The notes below the pieces were generated by a model that worked only from the letters and a program-made list of their open reading frames with translations, had not been told where the DNA came from and searched no databases. From a phage, in sequence record PZ445465.1: a DNA stretch of 46,037 nucleotides. One strand, 5' to 3'. The position numbers and the translations under genes are program-made. Shown here piece by piece: positions 2,847-36,770 of the stretch. Each line of letters opens with the position of its first letter. The stretch's first letter is position 1.

Positions 2847-3095
2847 ATGATAGGGATAATTCTTACTCTTATCGTTACGGCGTTCTTTGTTTATATCCTG
2901 ATAAGACATCAGCTTGTTTATATTGCCAGAGGAAGATTCATAAACTACTTCTATACAGAAGACCATAATGGATATGCAGCCGGCAAGATATTCCATGAGT
3001 CGCTACCAAGCTACGATGAGATGCTGTGGAAATTCTGGGTGTGGCCTCTGTCAAAATTCTATCCGGCGTACAGAAATCGAAATCGCAATAAGTGA
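2847..3095 (+). CDS. small membrane protein
   Basis: ATG 2847 after GAGGTGGAG; TM segment IGIILTLIVTAFFVYILI; followed by a terminator. Confidence 0.5.
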   Translation: MIGIILTLIVTAFFVYILIRHQLVYIARGRFINYFYTEDHNGYAAGKIFHESLPSYDEMLWKFWVWPLSKFYPAYRNRNRNK

Positions 3096-3105
3096 CCATG
3101 CTATA

Positions 3106-3135
3106 ATCCCATCCAACGTGATGGGATTTTTTATT
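3106..3135 (+). terminator. rho-independent terminator
   Basis: hairpin TCCCATC-CAACGT-GATGGGA followed by TTTTTTATT. Confidence 0.55.
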
Positions 3136-3143
3136 GGTGACAT

Positions 3144-4556
3144 ATGTCAAAAATTGATGCATTAAACGCCTATATACGCGACCGCGTGGCGAACAATAAC
3201 CGGGCGCTTCAGCAGCAGCGGCTTTGTGCTGGCGGGAAGAATCTGGACCAGAAACGTGAGTTCATGTGGAAGGAACTGGGCTACCCGCAGGAAATAACCG
3301 CCGAGATGTTCCGCTATGCATACGAGCGACATCCAGCCGCCGCCGCTGGCATTAACCGCATTATTAATAAATGCTGGCAGAAATACCCAGAAGTGGTTGA
3401 GGATGGCGAGGATGACAAGAACTCAACGTCGTGGGAGCTGTCCATCAACGACATGATGAAGCGCGCCTACCCGTTCATCAAGGAGGCTGACAAGCGCAAC
3501 GCCATCAACCGCTATTCCGCTGTTATCCTGCAAATCCGTGACGGCAAACAGTGGAGTGAACCGGTAGACATCACCAAAACACGCCGCATTAAAGATAAAT
3601 CCATTGTTCGCTTTATCCCAGTATGGGAAGAGCAACTCCGCGTCAGCGCATGGAATAACGATGAAACAAGTGAAGACTACGGCATGCCTGAGATGTACGA
3701 ATATCAGGAAAGCGCCGTAGAGGATTTCGATAGCGACGGCAAGCCTGAGCGTTCCGTGCAGATTCATCCTGATCGCATTATCATTCTGGCAGAGGGTAGC
3801 TTCGATGGCAGTATGTTCAGTGGCATCCCGATGCTACGTGCTGGCTACAACAGCCTTATCGACATGGCTAAGGTTTCCGGTAGTTCAGCAGAAGGCTTCC
3901 TGAAGAATGCCAGCCGTCAACTGGCTGTTAACTACACGAAGGACAACGTAACGCCAGCAAGCCTTGCACAGTCAATGGGTGTATCTCAGGATGAGCTTAT
4001 TGACATCATGAATGACAATATCGAGATGCTGAATTCTGGCATTGACGCTGCACTATTTAGCATGGGCGCCGAGACTCAGGTGTTATCCGTAACGCCAGCT
4101 GACCCGAAACCAACATGGGAAGTGGCTGCCAACCAGTTCGCTGCATCAATGGCGCTTCCGTTCACCGTCATTTTCGGGCAGCAAACCGGACGCCTTGCGA
4201 GTGATGAAGACAAGATGCAGGAGGCGATGACTGCCAAGCAGCGCCGAGAAACATGGGTGGATTATGTTATCTCAATGTTCGTTGAGCGCATGATTCAGTT
4301 CGGCATCGTCGATAAAGCACCGGCAAATGGCTACAAGGTTAAGTGGGACGACCTGCTTGCTCCATCAGAGCTGGATAAGGCGGAGTTGCTGTCTAAGCTC
4401 GCCACTGCGAACAAGTCGTTCTTTGATGCTGGTCAATCTGCGTTGCTTACCGTCGATGAGGCTCGCGGCATGGTTGGTATGGAGCCGATTGAACTTGATG
4501 AAAGTTATCGCGAAGACACGCCACCGGAAGATGAAAATGAAGATACTCCGGTTTAA
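3144..4556 (+). CDS. portal protein (putative)
   Basis: 470-aa ORF directly upstream of a Mu F-like head morphogenesis gene; acidic C-terminal tail; position and size typical of portal. Confidence 0.7.
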
Positions 4557-4620: not shown

Positions 4621-5487
4621 ATGTCGAAGATGGACAAGGTGATAACGCGCAAATATAAGCAACTCAGGACTCGTGCGCTTGAGTTGTTTCGCACCATTCC
4701 GCATAGTCAGACTAACGCAGAATCAAGCGGTCTGTATTTCTATGATTTCAGTAGTGCGCGCGCCGCTACTTTCATGGATGAGTTGCAGGCGCTGATTGAC
4801 GAGATTCTGCTGGAAGGTGACGACTTCAGTCACGGCAGGATGTGGGCCAATGTGTTCATCGGTGATGCGTATCAGGCAGGAACGCAGAAGGCCAACTCTG
4901 AACTATCAAGCCTGTCTCCGGTTTATGCCGAGCAGAGGCCTATTGCCGCGATACTCTACAGTGAGCCATATCTGAATCGGCTGCGGCTTGCGTATACAGC
5001 TGGTTACTCGGACTGGCGAGGATTGAGTGATTACTCACGCCAACAACTGGCATCCGTCATTATGGAAGGCATTGCCCGTGGTGCCAATCCTCGAGATGTT
5101 GAAGCTGATATCGTCAAGCGTGTTGATGTATCTCATAGCTACGCGAAACAGATAGCACAGACTGAAATCACCGGAACGCTGCGTCAGGCTAACAGAAGAG
5201 AAGTCATTGAGGCGCGCGAGGAATTAGGAATTGAAACGGTGATGCTGTGGCAATCGGCATTAATGCGCACGACACGCCAGACTCACGCGGCGAGACATGG
5301 AAGGTTTTACACGCCAGAAGAAATTGATACGTTTTATAGTGAAGTTGCTAACCGCAGGAATTGTCACTGTGCGCAAACTCCGGCGTTATTAATGGATGGG
5401 AAACCAGTCATTCTTGAGTCATCACAGGAAAGGCTTGATAAGCAGCGCGAGGCATGGCAATCAGCAAACAAAAAGCCCTCTAAGTGA
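4621..5487 (+). CDS. head morphogenesis protein (Mu F / SPP1 gp7-like, putative)
   Basis: start set at ATG 4621 after the portal stop; the track ORF's upstream extension overlaps portal; position and size typical of the family. Confidence 0.55.
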   Translation: MSKMDKVITRKYKQLRTRALELFRTIPHSQTNAESSGLYFYDFSSARAATFMDELQALIDEILLEGDDFSHGRMWANVFIGDAYQAGTQKANSELSSLSPVYAEQRPIAAILYSEPYLNRLRLAYTAGYSDWRGLSDYSRQQLASVIMEGIARGANPRDVEADIVKRVDVSHSYAKQIAQTEITGTLRQANRREVIEAREELGIETVMLWQSALMRTTRQTHAARHGRFYTPEEIDTFYSEVANRRNCHCAQTPALLMDGKPVILESSQERLDKQREAWQSANKKPSK

Positions 5488-5500
5488 GGGCTTGGTTTTA
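5474..5500. terminator. bidirectional rho-independent terminator
   Basis: hairpin AGCCCTC-TAAGT-GAGGGCT flanked by A-run and T-run, between convergent genes. Confidence 0.6.
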
Positions 5501-5571
5501 TCTTATGAGCATACACAGAACGAATATTATTATCGCATAGCACAATATCTCTACGACGCTGAATATTGTCT

Positions 5572-15682: not shown

Positions 15683-15685
15683 ACA

Positions 15686-15711
15686 AAACCCGCATCATGC
15701 GGGTTTTTTAT
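15686..15711. terminator. bidirectional rho-independent terminator
   Basis: CCCGCA-TCA-TGCGGG followed by TTTTTTATT, between convergent operons. Confidence 0.6.
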
Positions 15712-15713
15712 TG

Positions 15714-16250
15714 CTACAGACGCATCGGCATAACAACAATCTTAGCAGTCTCGCCAGATGGCGCATTAAGACAGCAAACTGCGGCATTTGTGTTTCCATT
15801 AAGTTCAAATTTGATACAACTGAATTTAGGATTAAACAGCTTCGCCACTTTCTCAACGTCAACCAGATATCCAGCATTGAAGCCAATTTCCTCTGCTGGC
15901 AAGGTCTGCTTCGGAATGACGCGATCAATATCAGGGAATCGCCCGTCAATCTCTTCACAGATACCAGCACCAACCATAACGCCAGCTTCATCATGATACG
16001 TTGCAATTTTCGACTTTGTATCAATGATGGCGTAGTCATAGCGTTTTGTTGGTGACTTGCCAATCTTGATAATCACATTTTCTGTAAGATTATTATCATG
16101 GTTTCCACCAATAAATGCGCGATGACCGTCAGTTGATGCAATACGACCATCAGGCATAAAGCAAATGCCATTCAGGTAATATCGCACATCGTTGCGCGCC
16201 TGAAATATTAATGCTGATTCAAGTAATAGTTTGCCGATTTTTAGTTTCAT
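15714..16250 (-). CDS. miniaturised beta sliding clamp (DnaN)-like protein
   Basis: 178 aa containing DVRYYLNG...TDGHR, IDGRFPDIDRVIPK, EIGFNAGYLVDV and C-terminal VVMPMRL; these match E. coli DnaN domain II/III segments and its C-terminus as recalled from memory, but the protein is under half DnaN length. Confidence 0.7.
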   Translation of the reverse strand: MKLKIGKLLLESALIFQARNDVRYYLNGICFMPDGRIASTDGHRAFIGGNHDNNLTENVIIKIGKSPTKRYDYAIIDTKSKIATYHDEAGVMVGAGICEEIDGRFPDIDRVIPKQTLPAEEIGFNAGYLVDVEKVAKLFNPKFSCIKFELNGNTNAAVCCLNAPSGETAKIVVMPMRL

Positions 16251-16423
16251 CACTTCACCTTAATCATATGCTGTTTTGCAACCTTCAGGCACTCCTCAAA
16301 AATGCCACCCTTCTTTGCGCTCTGATTGCGCTTGTAATACTGAACTGCCGCATCAATTGCCATCTGGTCGATTTCAGGCAGTTTGGTGCGTAGTTGTTTT
16401 TCAATGAATTGTTCTGGTGTCAT
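16250..16423 (-). CDS. hypothetical small protein (57 aa)
   Basis: unlisted ORF; ATG 16423 overlaps the methyltransferase stop (TAATG) and its stop overlaps the DnaN-like start (TGATG); GAGGT RBS. Confidence 0.4.
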   Translation of the reverse strand: MTPEQFIEKQLRTKLPEIDQMAIDAAVQYYKRNQSAKKGGIFEECLKVAKQHMIKVK

Positions 16424-18030: not shown

Positions 18031-18222
18031 TCATTCACCACTTTCTTCTAACAATTGCTCATAATATGCGACGTATTCATTAGCCAGATGGTACAGGCGA
18101 TCAGCAGACTTGCGTTCTGCATTGCTTAAGTCATCAATAGACTCAATGTTGCCAATTGCATCAACACAATCATTGAAGTCTTGCTCCGTGTTACGGAATC
18201 TACAGTAGGACATGTTTGCCAT
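18031..18222 (-). CDS. small acidic protein (63 aa)
   Basis: ATG 18222 with GAGGAG RBS; high Asp/Glu content. Confidence 0.45.
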   Translation of the reverse strand: MANMSYCRFRNTEQDFNDCVDAIGNIESIDDLSNAERKSADRLYHLANEYVAYYEQLLEESGE

Positions 18223-18224
18223 AA

Positions 18225-18485
18225 TCACTCCTCGTCACCCTGAAAAATACCGCCAAACTCTTCAACCAGTTCATCAATGCATTCGTCCGCCTCAGCGCAA
18301 TTGCCAGCGGCACTCAGCAGAATATCAACAGCCTCATCGTCAGGAATGTTGATTGCCGAGAAGAACTCAACAATGCACATTTTCACAACCTGATATTCAC
18401 CTTCTGTCTGGCAAGATGCGAAACTGCAAGCGACCGCATCAATCAGCTTGGCTTTGTCATCACTTGGGTTATCAATATCAAACAT
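18225..18485 (-). CDS. small strongly acidic protein (86 aa), first gene of the leftward early operon
   Basis: ATG 18485 with AGAGGTG RBS; about 22 D/E versus 3 K/R. Confidence 0.5.
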   Translation of the reverse strand: MFDIDNPSDDKAKLIDAVACSFASCQTEGEYQVVKMCIVEFFSAINIPDDEAVDILLSAAGNCAEADECIDELVEEFGGIFQGDEE

Positions 18486-18505: not shown

Positions 18506-18552
18506 TTGTTGTTTCTACGTCACTAACTATAAACGCACCATCAATCTACGTC
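18506..18552. promoter_or_regulatory. divergent promoter/operator region
   Basis: GTTTCTACGTC (18511-18521) and CAATCTACGTC (18542-18552); plus-strand TTGTTG-N16-TATAAA (18506-18533); lies between divergent gene starts 18485 and 18602. Confidence 0.45.
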
Positions 18553-18601
18553 AACAGGAATATGCTAAAATCATGCTAATCAAAAAACAGGAGATTTGAG
18601 C

Positions 18602-18721: not shown

Positions 18722-19161
18722 TGTTCGGCGCAGACATTGCCATCATGATCATGTATGTGCTGGGTTTTGCCTGCACGGGCATGGTTGCGTTTCTGGTGTT
18801 CATTCCGGCAATGGCGATGTCTGTGTATCTTGGATGGGTGCTTGCTGATTCATTTCCCGCCGAATATCTGTATTACCTTGCGCAGTCTATGGTCTGGCTA
18901 TTCCCGGCTATTGCACTGCGCAAAAGTACAAAAATGGCGCTCTGCGTGCTGACGATGAGCCTTTACGAAAGGCTGGTAGCGATAGAGTCATTCGTATGGG
19001 AATTTATCACGCCTGTAGAAACGCCGCTTCATGCGCAGTACGCATTTATTATTATCGGCATCCATCTGTTCATCCTTTCCATCACTTTTAAATGGGGCGG
19101 CGAAATTGGACATTATTCTTGGCGTGGTCGCCATTGTTTTTTCGCTGATTCAAGTCTATAA
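18721..19161 (+). CDS. integral membrane protein (about four TM helices)
   Basis: several hydrophobic helices across 146 aa. Confidence 0.5.
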   Translation: MFGADIAIMIMYVLGFACTGMVAFLVFIPAMAMSVYLGWVLADSFPAEYLYYLAQSMVWLFPAIALRKSTKMALCVLTMSLYERLVAIESFVWEFITPVETPLHAQYAFIIIGIHLFILSITFKWGGEIGHYSWRGRHCFFADSSL

Positions 19162-19193
19162 GTGCTGGAAACATATCATCAGCGAGACACGCA

Positions 19194-19478
19194 ATGAACG
19201 AAACACTAAGGCAGGCAGCAGAGCAAGTTATAAGCGGGACGACAGGACAGGTGATTGACAAGGCTGGATATGCCTCCATTGGTACTGGTATTGGACTGAA
19301 AGTTGCAGAGCAAACGCCTGTCACGCAGTCTTATTTTGAGGCTATGATTCCACACAGTCTGACGGAGTGGGCGGCAGTAGCGTCAATCCTTGGCGCTCTG
19401 TCTCTGGTAATAAAGAACCTGTTTGAAATGTGGTGGAAAGTCCGGGAGTCAAAGAGAAATGACAGCACCAACACCTGA
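19194..19478 (+). CDS. membrane protein with holin-like topology
   Basis: TM segment WAAVASILGALSLVIKNLFEMWW followed by a charged tail KVRESKRNDSTNT. Confidence 0.35.
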   Translation: MNETLRQAAEQVISGTTGQVIDKAGYASIGTGIGLKVAEQTPVTQSYFEAMIPHSLTEWAAVASILGALSLVIKNLFEMWWKVRESKRNDSTNT

Positions 19479-19851
19479 AGAACTGGTCAGCCAAATGGCG
19501 AATCGCGGAATGACCATCACCACAACAGATGCGTCTGGCATTCTGTGTCTTGTGGCGTCAATCAGTGAATGCCTTGAGCTGAACTATCCCAATGATGAAT
19601 GCCGGCAAAATGCGATCATGCTGTGGGCTTCCATCCTGATTAGCGCAAATACCGCAGGGCGCTACGTCACCAGTCAGAGCGCACCATCTGGCGCATCGCA
19701 ATCATTCGCTTATGGCAGCAAGCCGTGGGTGGCGCTGTACAATCAGATGAAGCTACTGGATACGGCAGGATGCACTGGCGATTTGGTGGAAGACCCTGAC
19801 GGAAGCGGTAAGCCGTGGTTTGCGGTTGTGCGTGGGAGTAAGTGTAAATGA
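19459..19851 (+). CDS. head-tail connector/adaptor protein (putative)
   Basis: 130 aa at the start of the head-tail joining block; assignment is positional. Confidence 0.35.
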   Translation: MTAPTPEELVSQMANRGMTITTTDASGILCLVASISECLELNYPNDECRQNAIMLWASILISANTAGRYVTSQSAPSGASQSFAYGSKPWVALYNQMKLLDTAGCTGDLVEDPDGSGKPWFAVVRGSKCK

Positions 19852-20653: not shown

Positions 20654-21024
20654 ACATGCTTGAGCTGGTTGATGCATATCTTCAGGATGCAGGATTGTAT
20701 GATGGCTGGACTTCGCAGTTGCAGTTCTGGAACGACACCGGAGATGGCAACGAGCAATTTATTGTTCTGCAATCCAATGGTGGCACGCAGGTGATGGACG
20801 GCCTCGGCGGTGACTTCTATTTCTCGCTGTACGTTGTTGGGAAACAAGGCCAGTACAATGTTGCTGATGTCGACGCTAAAGCCAATGAGATTATCGAATA
20901 CATCAAGACACATCCGATTGATTCATGCGTGAACTACATCCAGTTGCAGGCTCCTCTCGGACGACCAATGTTGACGGAGGAGAAGCGCCCTGTGCATGAG
21001 TTGCTTTTGCGGGTTGTGAAATAA
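20650..21024 (+). CDS. tail terminator / neck protein (putative)
   Basis: 124 aa, last gene before a terminator and the major tail gene; start GTG 20650 or ATG 20656. Confidence 0.35.
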   Translation: MNMLELVDAYLQDAGLYDGWTSQLQFWNDTGDGNEQFIVLQSNGGTQVMDGLGGDFYFSLYVVGKQGQYNVADVDAKANEIIEYIKTHPIDSCVNYIQLQAPLGRPMLTEEKRPVHELLLRVVK

Positions 21025-21078
21025 ATAAAGCCGCACGAAGCGGCCTTATTGCTGGTTTAAGCATTGCCAGCATGCTTT

Positions 21079-21144
21079 CTTAATATCCAGCCCCGTAACC
21101 CATACATACCCCTACATATGATTGCGATAATGCTGGATATTAAG
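21079..21144. repeat. perfect 13-bp inverted repeat (CTTAATATCCAGC / GCTGGATATTAAG) separated by 40 nt
   Basis: read directly; a second small hairpin GCCGG-N9-CCGGC lies at 21155-21173; located in a ~0.65 kb region of low coding potential. Confidence 0.6.
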
Positions 21145-21688
21145 TGTTGTGGTGGCCGGTGCTGATATCCGGCATAAGGCGCTTATTCGGCGGCGTCGAG
21201 CTTGCTTATTCGCTTGAGCCATCCTCGTGAGTCAGCCACGTCCCACTGCGCATCAGCCTGCGCATTCACCACAACGGAAATAGCACTGGATAACCAAGCG
21301 CGCAGACTCTTCACGATTATCTGCTCAATGCTCTTACCTGTTGTGTGCCACGTTTCGTGTGGCTTACGGCAACGACATTACCTGGTTATTCGCTGCACCC
21401 TTGAGGGATTTACTAAGGCGACATGCCCGTTGTTACCCACGAATGAGAGTACTGTCTTCGAGCAGACTTTGCGCGCAAGAACGACGATCAATCACAATAC
21501 CCTCATTTGTGGGTGCCCATTATTAATCACAGCGGGCCACTGCGCCGAATTTGCTTACAAGGAATCGGAAGACCTTGCTGACTTACAGGCTATTACGCCG
21601 CCATCAGAACAACATCATCGTTTGCATTTATCTTTGTGGTCAGTTTCTAAAAAGTCCGCAAAGTCGCTTACGAAAACCATCTGAAATA

Positions 21689-26749: not shown

Positions 26750-31471
<4,722 letters not shown>

Positions 31472-31510
31472 TACAATATACATCAAATTCACAAAGGAGC
31501 ATTTATTATA

Positions 31511-33418
31511 ATGGCTACCACACCAACTAATAAACCAATTCCGTCAGAAGATCCTCGCGACCTTAAATTTAATGCAGGGAAAATCGACGAGGTGGTAACA
31601 TCTAACGCGCATTACTACACCGACCGCTTCGGAGTTCGCCGGTTTACTATCGCCGGTTTCCAATATACAGCAGAAGAAGCTATCCGTAATTATGGCTATA
31701 TCACGATGGACAGTTTTGAGGATGGGGCGACACTGACGTTGCCTAATCAGGTTCTGCGCTATGAGGCTACTGGCGAATATTACCGCTGGGACGGTGAATT
31801 TCCTAAAACTGTTTCTTCCGGCTCAACACCTGAAGCATCTGGCGGTGTTGGTATTGGTGCATGGGTTAGTGTTGGTGATGCTTCATTGCGCAGTGATTTG
31901 GCCCTAAGCACTGGCGCAGGGTTAGTTGGGACAACATCCGGCAGGACCGTACAGGCAGAGTTTGACCATTTCAAAATAGGGTATATGACACCCGATGATT
32001 TCGGCGCGGTAGGTGATGGTGCCACCGACGACACCACGCCTTTGCAACAGGCTATTGACTATTGTTCAAGCAACGGTATCGCGTTAAGAATCCCCGCAAA
32101 ATCTTATGTTTGGAATGGCGGTATTATAACTTCACCCATAACAATAATCGGTGACAGACGTCCAGATTACAATTTTAGCTCCAATTCTATGTCTAACGGG
32201 TCTGTCATAATTGGCAATTTAAGATTTTCCGCAAGCCAGGTGATTATTAAGTCACTTGGTGTGCGTAGGCCTACAGGCTCCCCCGGAGATTGTCTGGTGT
32301 TATCGACCGATAACTATGCTGGTGGGTCTTGTATTGTTCAAGATGTAGTTGCCGCGGGCCTTTCCGGTTCGGACAAGTACCACAGCGTTCTTGTTGAAGG
32401 CTACGATTCCGCGCATGTATCTCAAATAACTGGCGGTTATAATCTTTTTGGCCTCGCGATTAAGTCAAGAAACGTTGTTGCCAGAGGCGTAATAACCGTA
32501 AGCTGTGATACTGGCGTTATCATTAAATCTGATAGTGAGTTCAGCACGGCAAAAAATGTGGTGCTGGACGGGCACATTAATGTCGGTAATGGTGTTTCTA
32601 GTCAAGGTGTTTGGATTTACAGCACAACCGCACAACTTGAGCGTATTACCTGCGCAAACTTACAAAGCATCGATTCCGCTATACATATGCGGATTAAGTC
32701 CGAAAACGTAGCTAATGACGTGCAAATTGTTGGGGCAAATTATTCAGGATCTACTTATGCGGATGTGCTCGTCGAAGGCACTTCGGCTGGCACGTTGTAC
32801 AATGTTAGTTTAGATAGTATAACCGCAGTAAATAGCCAGAAATTTATGGCTGCAGGTTTCTGTGAACAACTGATGGTAACAGGATTCTATGGGTCCCTGA
32901 AACCTGGCGCTCCCGCCGATACTGCGTTTGAGGTTAGCACCGCCGTAGGGCTTTTTAGCGGGTCAAATATCCAACTAGTCCGTCAATACAGCAGTGACCT
33001 AATGACAATTAATCTCGGTAACAGTTATCTTAATAATAGATTATCATCTGTTAAGGCGAAAGTAATAGGAAACGGCAAACCTAGGCCGGGGTATAAAGAA
33101 CAGAATCTTAGCGGCGCTGCGGCTACAATGATTGTTGGCGACAGTTTGGGGCCCTCTGGGGTTGTGTCTGTCACCGCGATATCCGCCGGCAGTTCATTCA
33201 GCAGTATTGCTATTAATGACGACTATGGTCAGCCGGTTAAGCCAGGTTTTCTTCTAATAATCCGAAACGCATCCGCTATCTCGTTCGTTATGAACCATAA
33301 TCCAGGGTCTGGTGGAATCGCAAATAACGGGGCGGTTGGTAAGACCATTGCGGGCGGAGACACTATAATGTACGTTTTTGACGGGGCGAATTGGCGTCAA
33401 ACTCCATCTATAGCTTAA
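31511..33418 (+). CDS. tailspike / depolymerase with pectate-lyase-like beta-helix
   Basis: DDFGAVGDGATDDTTPLQQAIDY is the pectate lyase-3 signature; 635 aa; last tail gene, followed by a terminator. Confidence 0.75.
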   Translation: MATTPTNKPIPSEDPRDLKFNAGKIDEVVTSNAHYYTDRFGVRRFTIAGFQYTAEEAIRNYGYITMDSFEDGATLTLPNQVLRYEATGEYYRWDGEFPKTVSSGSTPEASGGVGIGAWVSVGDASLRSDLALSTGAGLVGTTSGRTVQAEFDHFKIGYMTPDDFGAVGDGATDDTTPLQQAIDYCSSNGIALRIPAKSYVWNGGIITSPITIIGDRRPDYNFSSNSMSNGSVIIGNLRFSASQVIIKSLGVRRPTGSPGDCLVLSTDNYAGGSCIVQDVVAAGLSGSDKYHSVLVEGYDSAHVSQITGGYNLFGLAIKSRNVVARGVITVSCDTGVIIKSDSEFSTAKNVVLDGHINVGNGVSSQGVWIYSTTAQLERITCANLQSIDSAIHMRIKSENVANDVQIVGANYSGSTYADVLVEGTSAGTLYNVSLDSITAVNSQKFMAAGFCEQLMVTGFYGSLKPGAPADTAFEVSTAVGLFSGSNIQLVRQYSSDLMTINLGNSYLNNRLSSVKAKVIGNGKPRPGYKEQNLSGAAATMIVGDSLGPSGVVSVTAISAGSSFSSIAINDDYGQPVKPGFLLIIRNASAISFVMNHNPGSGGIANNGAVGKTIAGGDTIMYVFDGANWRQTPSIA

Positions 33419-34996: not shown

Positions 34997-35185
34997 TCAC
35001 TCAAATTCTACAAAATCACCACCAACCATTTCGACGATAATGAATCCAGATTCATCATCATATGTTGCCTGCCATATAGCTCCAGTTTCGTCGCTTATGT
35101 TAAAGGTACCACCAAAAAAGTCAGCGCTATACCACTCATCTTCTTTAAATCTTTTGCTTGTTGAGCTTGCACAAAATAATTTCAT
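34997..35185 (-). CDS. hypothetical small acidic protein
   Basis: ATG 35185 with GAGGTG RBS. Confidence 0.4.
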   Translation of the reverse strand: MKLFCASSTSKRFKEDEWYSADFFGGTFNISDETGAIWQATYDDESGFIIVEMVGGDFVEFE

Positions 35186-35202
35186 TTGCATCACCTCACT
35201 AA

Positions 35203-36144
35203 TTATAAATTAAACTGTTTTTTGAACCATTCAGGCGTTTCCATTTCTATGACAGGATTACCCATTGAATAACCGGGCCACGAATTGGCTTTTTTGCACG
35301 CCTTGTAAATTTCCATAGCGCCATGCAACTGAATTCGACCGATGCGTAATTGCTCTTCAGTCAAGCGAATTAACGCAGGAATAAATGGTGCTTTCTTTTC
35401 CTGAACGAGAAGATTAACAGAGCGTGGCGCATGACCATATGCCGCAACAAACATGTCGTGCTGCATCGCCATTTTCATAAAGTACCCAAGTCTCGCAGCA
35501 TGACGGAAAAACTCTTCTGGCTTGGCGCTCACCGCTGTTTTGTAGTCGATGATGTCGCCACCTTTGGTAAGGCAGTCAAAGCGAACTTTTGCCTTCTCTC
35601 CGTTAATTTCACCTAGAATTGACACTTCAGCATAAGCACCAGCGAGAAGACTGCTGTAATAGCTGTTTGCGTGGATTACAGCACGCATTTGCTGAATAGC
35701 GTCATAATCACCACCTTCCAGCATTTGCTTTCCTACAGCAGCTTTTTCAGCCTCTTCACGGATGACATCGTAAATTTTCACTGGCTCGCCAGTCGCCTGG
35801 ATGATTTTGATCACCTCAGCTTTCGACTTTCCTGAAAGTCCTTTGATGCCTCGTTCTTTTGCCCATGAGTTCATATCACTTACAGTAACAAGCAGGTCAT
35901 CACCAAAATCTTCTTTGGTTGGCATTCGTGCATATTCAGCATCAAAACGCTCTGGTTCAAGCAACGCAGTATGGCTACCTGTACCGAATATAAGAGCTTT
36001 TGATTGCTCATCCTCTTCGTCTTTGTATCGCCATGCTGCTGGGCATCTGTCAAGTATATTCCATAATCCAGAGCCATTAATATGCTCTGTGTCTGCGTGG
36101 TAATCTTCATTACTGAGTTCATTATTGAAATAGACTTTCATCAT
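35203..36144 (-). CDS. PD-(D/E)XK-type recombination exonuclease (putative)
   Basis: DCLTKGGDIIDYKT motif; neighbours SSB and ATPase. Confidence 0.55.
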   Translation of the reverse strand: MMKVYFNNELSNEDYHADTEHINGSGLWNILDRCPAAWRYKDEEDEQSKALIFGTGSHTALLEPERFDAEYARMPTKEDFGDDLLVTVSDMNSWAKERGIKGLSGKSKAEVIKIIQATGEPVKIYDVIREEAEKAAVGKQMLEGGDYDAIQQMRAVIHANSYYSSLLAGAYAEVSILGEINGEKAKVRFDCLTKGGDIIDYKTAVSAKPEEFFRHAARLGYFMKMAMQHDMFVAAYGHAPRSVNLLVQEKKAPFIPALIRLTEEQLRIGRIQLHGAMEIYKACKKANSWPGYSMGNPVIEMETPEWFKKQFNL

Positions 36145-36770
36145 CACTCTCCGTGGTTACAGAATTCTTTATGCATCTTTTCTCTGAATTTCATCACAGA
36201 CAACCTCGCTCTCTCAATATCATTGAATAACCCAAGATGGTATCTTTTCCCGTTAACATCACAGTAAGCCTGCCACTTTTTAACCTGTTTTTGCCAATAC
36301 ACACCTTTAACTCCTGATGTGTTATTTTTTGGTTTTTTAGCGTTATACTGGTTCTGCATATTTGTTGCGATTCTTAAGTTGCAAATCCTGTTATCGTCAC
36401 GCACGCCGTTAATGTGATCAATTTGACCTTCAGGCCAGAAACCATAATAAATCAACCATGCCAAGCGATGCGCGTAGTATCTTTTATTATTTATGCTTAT
36501 CTCTATGTATCCGTTATGTTTTTTCCTGCCAGCGACACTACCCTTTCTTATACCTCCACCCGTCTTATTTCTAATGAAAACCCCCGTTTCAGGGTTGTAA
36601 TTTAAGCTATCCAAAACAACATCACGTGGTATTCTTTTTCTTCCTCCTATGGTGTTTGACTCTGCACTTCCCTGAGCAAAATCTTGCTTTTGCAGTTCCG
36701 ATAAACTCATTTCCACAAACCTCGCACTTCTTAACGGTGATAGCCATTTCTTATCCTCTATTGTAATCAT
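36144..36770 (-). CDS. HNH homing endonuclease with AP2-like DNA-binding domain
   Basis: HNH-type His/Asn core (YAHRLAWLIYYG...IDHINGVRDDN) and C-terminal SGVKGVYWQKQVKKWQAYCDVNGKRYHLGLF AP2-type segment. Confidence 0.65.
   Translation of the reverse strand: MITIEDKKWLSPLRSARFVEMSLSELQKQDFAQGSAESNTIGGRKRIPRDVVLDSLNYNPETGVFIRNKTGGGIRKGSVAGRKKHNGYIEISINNKRYYAHRLAWLIYYGFWPEGQIDHINGVRDDNRICNLRIATNMQNQYNAKKPKNNTSGVKGVYWQKQVKKWQAYCDVNGKRYHLGLFNDIERARLSVMKFREKMHKEFCNHGE

Follow-up and report, generated by a model that had tools for sequence, protein, structure and literature searches.

Bacterial replication and repair converge on the beta sliding clamp, a central hub whose protein-binding cleft is an active antibiotic target. 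In Escherichia coli, the clamp subunit DnaN consists of 366 amino acids (aa) that form three domains; a shorter product, beta*, which comprises domains II and III, reportedly arises from an internal in-frame start in dnaN and is said to form a functional, trimeric clamp. A non-ring form of the clamp has been engineered: mutation of I272 and L273 renders beta monomeric, and the monomeric variant binds the clamp-loader subunit delta ~50 times tighter than the dimer and still binds DNA, but does not support processive synthesis by DNA polymerase III (Pol III) (PMC11139829). Phage factors that act at the beta clamp hub include Gp168 of phage Twort, which plugs the DNA channel of the host clamp, and MuC of phage Mu, which carries a clamp-binding motif through which it exploits host beta in late transcription; neither protein is homologous to the clamp. 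A looser parallel is offered by the herpesvirus proteins UL42 and UL44, which are built of two full domains and bind DNA through a strongly basic face. Here we analyse a gene in the ~46 kb genome of a siphophage (sequence record PZ445465.1; 46,037 nucleotides, hereafter the window) that encodes a 178-aa homologue of DnaN, which we denote short beta.

Short beta resembles E. coli DnaN in sequence and fold, shares most of its cleft residues and ends in the same VVMPMRL tail, but it lacks domain I, the first half of domain III and, within domain II, the second inner helix. Its start lies near the boundary between domains I and II, as is said of beta*; whereas beta* reportedly keeps the whole of domain III, short beta has lost half of that domain and one more helix. 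The I272A/L273A variant is comparable as a non-ring clamp with an intact cleft, although it is an engineered full-length, three-domain protein with no role in infection. Gp168 and MuC bind the clamp, whereas short beta appears to imitate its docking site. With UL42 and UL44, short beta has no detectable sequence relationship, and the likeness is an analogy only. Counterparts among phage proteins are the relatives in PHROG 3007, such as Bcep781 gp15, EP23p08 and Acinetobacter phage Cato_36, which have the same truncated architecture, a length of 165-215 aa and an MP.R motif at the C-terminus; the distant members of this family are 27-39% identical to short beta and differ from it in genomic context.

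Similarity to DnaN and predicted structure

The original prediction described short beta as a miniaturised DnaN, under half the length of the clamp, that lacks domain I, has large internal deletions and is near-identical to the E. coli protein in several segments. The alignment to E. coli DnaN, for which we used a sequence confirmed to be identical to PDB 1mmi, is significant (BLASTP E 1e-11), and in a phmmer search against PDB sequences the top matches are beta clamps only, with Enterobacter cloacae DnaN (E 1.2e-11) and E. coli DnaN (1mmi; E 6e-11) in front. The near-identity of the quoted blocks is real: DVRYYLNG (8/8 identical residues), TDGHR (5/5), IDGRFPDIDRVIPK against DnaN VDGRFPDYRRVLPK (10/14; pattern DGRFPD..RV.PK), EIGFNAGYLVDV against DnaN EIGFNVSYVLDV (8/12; pattern EIGFN..Y..DV) and the C-terminal VVMPMRL (7/7). 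It does not extend to the whole protein, which is 29% identical to DnaN over 175 aa. Short beta is thus a distant homologue of DnaN and not a near copy.

Sequence alignments place residues 1-115 on DnaN ~130-253, that is, domain II, and both HMMER and BLAST align residues 120-178 with the latter half of domain III, at DnaN 315-366; the Pfam model DNA_pol3_beta_3 covers residues 120-177 with its positions 71-121 of 121. In these alignments, domain I and DnaN ~253-314 have no counterpart in short beta, and a Pfam scan of the 178-aa protein gave no match to the N-terminal clamp domain (PF00712). The matches to the other two clamp domains score below the cut-off of 27 (PF02767, 15.2 bits; PF02768, 17.2 bits), as does the match to TIGR00663 (36.2 bits against a cut-off of 137.65). 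Thus, the predicted length of less than half that of DnaN (178 against 366 aa), the lack of domain I and a large internal deletion were all borne out.

An AlphaFold2 model built with a 122-sequence alignment of the family is a compact and confident monomer, with a mean predicted local distance difference test score (pLDDT) of 96.7 and a predicted template modelling score (pTM) of 0.91. A Foldseek search of the PDB with this model retrieved E. coli beta clamps first, at a query-normalised template modelling (TM) score of ~0.66; ~155 residues superpose on DnaN (1mmi/2pol) at less than 3.1 Å, and all structural neighbours of the model are sliding clamps. Modelled on its own, the protein is thus predicted to adopt a clamp fold. 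The model contains just two long helices, at residues 7-16 and 126-139, and a nine-residue loop (64-72), flanked by strands 59-63 and 73-77, takes the place of the second channel-lining helix of DnaN domain II. Together, the alignments and the model indicate that short beta consists of a domain II in which a loop replaces the second inner helix and of the C-terminal beta-alpha-beta-beta-beta half of domain III. The region around I272 and L273, where domain III meets domain I in the head-to-tail dimer, falls within the part of DnaN (~253-314) that has no counterpart in short beta. Because domain I and the half of domain III that bears the dimer interface are missing, formation of a canonical head-to-tail ring is predicted to be impossible.

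A search of BFVD with the same model also yielded a weak match to A0A6J7W9M3_1 (E 1.2e-5, TM 0.39), a 1,394-aa 'large polyvalent protein-associated domain' protein of an uncultured phage. If this match is real, a clamp-like module would sit inside a large, multidomain (polyvalent) phage protein.

Conservation of the client-binding cleft

The cleft of DnaN comprises subsite I (R152, L155, T172, G174, H175, R176, L177, P242, R246, V247, V360 and M362) and subsite II (H175, N320, Y323, V344, M362, P363, M364 and R365) (PMC11139829). Of the 18 residues on this list, 16 are identical in short beta. Conservation across the family was assessed on 132 aligned members, taken from clusters that share at most 50% identity. 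Twelve positions are conserved in at least 90% of the members (D21, R23, Y25, L26, G28, T40, G42, H43, P106, Y128, M174 and P175), and nine of the 12 belong to the cleft (hypergeometric p 2.4e-8); conservation averages 0.74 in the cleft against 0.37 elsewhere. Conservation of R23, Y25, L26 and G28 is 0.90-0.98, at least 91% of the members share T40, G42 and H43, P106 is conserved in 131 and Y128 in 122 of the 132, and the C-terminal MP.R motif is present across the family. The claim that short beta keeps the client-binding cleft of the clamp is thus upheld, with the cleft coinciding with the most conserved positions of the family. On these sequence comparisons, the family has shed most of the clamp while keeping the docking pocket under selection, which is the strongest clue to its function.

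The phage family and its annotation

Short beta matches phrog_3007 end to end (E 2e-61; its residues 1-178 align with positions 1-186 of the 190 in the profile), and it is identical to Bas79_0040 of Escherichia phage SusanneMuster_Bas79. Homologues were detected by tblastn in 271 phage records, at full length in 263 of these; the hosts of the family include Escherichia, Salmonella, Klebsiella, Vibrio, Burkholderia, Acinetobacter and Proteus. A search of 1.84 billion cluster representatives gave 1,784 matches at E ≤1e-3, and nearly all of the best 150 of these are 165-215 aa long. A profile search retrieved more than 6,400 clusters at 90% identity, the best 120 matches being close relatives only. 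In BFVD, many phage models of 178-250 aa share the fold at TM 0.8-0.9.

The gene is under purifying selection, with a ratio of nonsynonymous to synonymous substitution rates (dN/dS) of 0.10-0.19 against three relatives, in agreement with the intact reading frame noted previously. No nucleotide match to the gene was found in 5,426 complete E. coli genomes (blastn, distant mode). Because the truncated architecture is common to hundreds of diverged clusters and to phages of many hosts, short beta belongs to an old and widespread phage family. The suggestion that it is a host-like fragment captured recently fails on these same grounds, namely, the diverged family that shares its architecture, the dN/dS values, the lack of an E. 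coli nucleotide match and the low identity to DnaN.

The similarity to DnaN had already been annotated in GenBank: Bcep781 gp15 is labelled 'DNA Pol III b subunit fragment', and many records carry 'DNA polymerase III beta subunit'. By contrast, PHROG 3007 is labelled 'RusA-like Holliday junction resolvase', and this label has spread to records derived from Pharokka and PHROG, such as PQ850629 (Bas79_0040) and NC_054645. Scans of short beta against Pfam (E ≤0.1) and NCBIfam detected no RusA family; the sequence and the predicted fold are those of a beta clamp, and the RusA label is a systematic misannotation. None of the defence-system families of PADLOC matched short beta (E ≤0.01). In the full-text literature, we found no structural, biochemical or genetic study of any family member, only mentions at the level of annotation. 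Hence the homology was annotated previously, whereas no published study of the function of the family was found.

Genomic context

Short beta is the last gene of a minus-strand operon that runs from a putative promoter through an anti-restriction-family gene, a 65-aa open reading frame (ORF), a ParB-like gene, a C-5 cytosine methyltransferase gene and a 57-aa ORF to short beta and a terminator (Table 1). Pfam and PHROG searches confirmed the methyltransferase and the ParB-like protein that had been proposed as operon partners. The ribosome-binding site and translational coupling were likewise recovered, in the form of a Shine-Dalgarno-like AAGGTG upstream of the short beta ATG and a TGATG overlap with the 57-aa ORF; an overlap of the short beta start with a small upstream gene is also seen in phages LPSTLL, ZCKP8 and HC6. 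By its pattern, the operon appears to be driven by a host-type promoter.

Table 1 Coordinates of short beta, of its blocks shared with E. coli DnaN and of the surrounding operon in the window
Feature	Coordinates	Strand	Remarks
Short beta-clamp homologue gene	15714..16250	-	178 aa + TAG; ATG at 16250, TAG at 15714-15716; PHROG 3007 member
DVRYYLNG, residues 21-28	16167..16190	-	identical to DnaN 150-157; holds cleft residues R152 and L155
TDGHR, residues 40-44	16119..16133	-	identical to DnaN 172-176; subsite I wall with the bridging residue His175
IDGRFPDIDRVIPK, residues 101-114	15909..15950	-	DnaN 237-250; interdomain connector with P242, R246 and V247
EIGFNAGYLVDV, residues 121-132	15855..15890	-	DnaN 316-327; subsite II residues N320 and Y323; start of the retained domain III helix
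VVMPMRL, residues 172-178	15717..15737	-	identical to the DnaN C-terminal tail 360-366; closes the cleft
Bidirectional intrinsic terminator AAAACCCGCATCATGCGGGTTTT	15685..15707		separates the capsid operon from the end of the short beta operon
57-aa ORF, phrog_4439	16250..16423	-	stop overlaps short beta start (TGATG)
C-5 cytosine DNA methyltransferase, 266 aa	16423..17223	-	Pfam PF00145 E 1e-21; phrog_363 E 3e-75
ParB-like protein, 273 aa	17220..18041	-	Pfam HTH_ParB E 2.6e-11; phrog_1033 E 2.6e-90
65-aa ORF, phrog_8760	18031..18228	-	PHROG match
86-aa protein, family annotated as anti-restriction	18225..18485	-	first gene of the operon; phrog_14587 E 1.2e-46
Sigma70-like promoter, TTGACG/17-nt spacer/TATAGT	18526..18554	-	10/12 consensus matches; pattern match only

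The segment 15000-19000 of the window is 99.5% identical to Bas79 over the 89% of the segment that is covered. The two genomes differ at the head of the operon, where, upstream of the ParB-like gene, the window has the 86-aa and 65-aa ORFs (18031-18485) and Bas79 instead has a single annotated gene for a 207-aa hypothetical protein (18922-19545); a cassette seems to have been swapped at this end of the operon.

The replication genes of the window, which encode a superfamily 2 (SF2) helicase, a primase, a second helicase/primase-like protein, a Sak4-like protein, an exonuclease and a single-stranded DNA-binding protein (SSB), are located ~17 kb from short beta. The large non-structural ORFs that were tested in the window revealed no DNA polymerase, and the annotation of Bas79 lists none, in line with the absence of a polymerase gene reported in the original prediction. 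Between the exonuclease and SF2 helicase genes, the window also encodes, at 36144-36770 on the minus strand, an HNH endonuclease with an AP2 DNA-binding domain, which resembles a homing endonuclease that has invaded the replication/recombination module.

Among the relatives, the surroundings of the gene vary. Short beta adjoins Dam/Dcm methyltransferase genes in Skarpretter and Vibrio phage R20L and a primase-polymerase gene in Pseudoalteromonas phage C7, and in Pseudomonas phage Riah it lies near genes for a ParB-N protein and a PAPS reductase-family protein. In EP23, Bcep781, Shewanella phage 1/41, Acinetobacter phage Cato, Proteus phage 2207-N35 and Kagunavirus fPoEco01, the gene stands alone inside head or tail modules. 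Among these solitary inserts, which are found in phages unrelated to one another, are those at positions 21007-21564 in Cato, 5004-5552 in Shewanella phage 1/41 and 2962-3483 in fPoEco01; the Cato gene is located between, and on the same strand as, the genes for the tail tube initiator and the baseplate hub. A fixed gene neighbourhood was accordingly rejected, methyltransferase and ParB-like neighbours recurring inconsistently. Such scattered placement fits an accessory gene for interaction with the host better than a core subunit of the replisome.

The Shigella phage EP23 (Dhillonvirus) carries, besides its family member, a divergent family A polymerase-like protein. This 1,062-aa protein, annotated as 'DNA polymerase family A' (29110-32298, minus strand), matches Pol I models over ~75 residues only (around 394-469; E 1e-12), far below the cut-offs. 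Because EP23 has a polymerase-like protein of its own, the family is not confined to polymerase-less phages; the notion that only such phages carry it is ruled out, and the argument that a phage with short beta and no polymerase must use it to recruit Pol III is weakened.

Search for a phage partner

We scanned phage proteins for clamp-binding motifs that could dock in the short beta cleft. With a strict motif, the sole match in the window is QMKLF at the start of a small ORF (34997-35194, minus strand; reading MMQMKLF) that lies between the Sak4-like and exonuclease genes. The spacing of the ribosome-binding site places the start at a later ATG, which gives a protein that begins with MKLFC; in the homologues of the ORF, D or E replaces Q in the upstream codon; and the ORF is present in 23 phage records against 271 for short beta. 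Relaxing the motif added QMHLSL in the ParB-like protein and QMQLDL in a 531-aa helicase-like protein, at about the estimated chance frequency. The proteomes of EP23 and Cato contain no terminal clamp-binding motifs. No candidate partner was therefore retained, QMKLF having failed on its start site, the unconserved Q and its rarity, and the relaxed matches being close to chance.

Possible functions

Given that selection preserves a hydrophobic peptide-binding cleft, we infer a receptor for clamp-binding motifs: as judged from its sequence, short beta most likely works in soluble form and without sliding, and recognises motifs of the Q-L-x-L-F type. What such a receptor would do in the infected cell is a more tentative matter. 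The role we rank first, while holding it to be possible rather than probable, is that of a competitor or decoy for host clamp clients, because the conserved positions cluster in the cleft and the genes around it are of an accessory kind. Under this scheme, short beta would be expressed from the host-type promoter together with the anti-restriction-family, ParB-like and methyltransferase genes, and would compete with the host beta clamp for its clients, which would be titrated or redirected during infection; candidate clients are the clamp-loader delta, Hda, MutS/MutL, translesion polymerases and, possibly, the alpha and epsilon subunits of Pol III. The monomeric beta variant, with its tight binding of delta and its failure to support processive synthesis, provides a precedent and a useful guide. 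A related reading, on which we are slightly more doubtful, sees in the family a widespread phage strategy: the docking cleft, copied in a non-ring form that needs no loader, would selectively soak up proteins with clamp-binding motifs, among them free delta, Hda, MutS/MutL and translesion polymerases, and so rewire the host clamp network early in infection. If true, this would be the reverse of the known phage factors, which bind the clamp itself.

Several points weigh against a decoy. The main objection is that this phage, which has no polymerase of its own, relies on Pol III, beta and the clamp loader of its host. If delta or alpha were sequestered indiscriminately, the phage would suffer as well, so that a decoy would have to be selective or its dosage controlled. 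Furthermore, the cleft is also the most conserved part of DnaN, so its retention proves a functional cleft but says nothing about the ligand. Conservation within the cleft is uneven, with the positions equivalent to R176, L177 and M364 conserved in just 31-46% of the family, and the copy in phage HC6 carries H43R and R110H. The HC6 homologue (OL362274, 16791-17327) is otherwise 84% identical to short beta, with a one-residue insertion near residue 87; the two substitutions affect the equivalents of DnaN H175 and R246, and this copy may be a natural cleft variant. Finally, the motif scans of phage proteins identified no binding partner, and we found no experiment on the family in the literature.

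The most serious competing explanation is an adaptor, in which the cleft would capture a component of the host replisome, such as Pol III alpha or epsilon, delta, Pol I or ligase. Phage DNA or the phage helicase-primase would be held by another surface of the protein, so that host polymerase reaches replication forks set up by phage-encoded helicase and primase. Such a role would suit a genome that encodes helicases, primase, Sak4-like protein, exonuclease and SSB but in which no polymerase was found, and in Skarpretter, Vibrio phage R20L and Pseudoalteromonas phage C7 the neighbours of the gene are replication genes, SSB or a primase-polymerase. Both retained helices carry conserved basic residues (positions 11, 19, 134, 137 and 142), and the median isoelectric point (pI) of the family is 8.3 against 5.25 for DnaN. 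Yet short beta lies outside the replication module of the window and in many phages is a lone gene within head and tail modules, the EP23 member coexists with that phage's own family A polymerase-like protein, and no conserved terminal clamp-binding motif was seen in the scanned phage proteomes. Moreover, no clear second interface is visible, because the conserved positions outside the cleft are mostly Gly, Pro or Ala or are adjacent to the cleft. On balance, we consider an adaptor plausible but rather unlikely. Alternatively, short beta could be a non-ring tether similar to UL42/UL44, whose basic face would bind duplex DNA while the cleft holds a polymerase, with no need for a clamp loader. 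The presence of a family member in EP23, which has its own family A polymerase-like protein, the mildly basic pI of the family, the conserved Lys and Arg residues on the retained helices and the ability of monomeric beta to bind DNA are compatible with such a tether, but the net charge is small (family median +2; short beta +1, pI 7.6), one inner helix is lost in the AlphaFold2 model, and monomeric beta is unable to tether Pol III for processive synthesis, which makes this explanation improbable.

A true clamp assembled from several subunits is harder still to credit. Four copies of 1.5 domains each, for instance, would amount to six domains, and a ring of this kind would be loaded by the host clamp loader and used by host Pol III on phage DNA. 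Half-domains that pair across subunits are conceivable because clamp domains are internally duplicated, and the C-terminal segment of short beta indeed aligns to both halves of DnaN domain III; beta*, with domains II and III only, reportedly assembles into a trimer. However, each chain has only two helices of the channel type, the second helix of domain II being lost, the canonical interface residues are absent, and the model is a compact, confident monomer, so this arrangement is very improbable. The two remaining explanations can effectively be dismissed. A decaying, functionless fragment of host dnaN acquired recently would be in keeping with enterobacterial DnaN as the best match among solved structures, but is effectively refuted by the low protein identity, the absence of a nucleotide match in E. 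coli genomes, the purifying selection, the architecture kept across hundreds of diverged clusters, and the translational coupling of the gene and the terminator that follows it. In favour of a RusA-like Holliday junction resolvase there is only the name given to PHROG 3007, together with the record annotations that were taken from that name; with no RusA match in Pfam or NCBIfam, and with a clamp sequence and predicted clamp fold, a resolvase is refuted at both levels.

Implications

The system is directly testable because Bas79, which encodes the identical protein, belongs to a collection of phages of E. coli K-12. If a clamp-like cleft without a ring holds up, short beta would offer a compact scaffold for studying and screening ligands of the clamp cleft, and it would represent a new route by which phages manipulate the replisome and the repair network of the host. 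It would also give a function to a gene family that is present in hundreds of sequenced phages, and many of whose genes currently bear a wrong label, either 'DNA polymerase III beta subunit' or 'RusA-like resolvase'.

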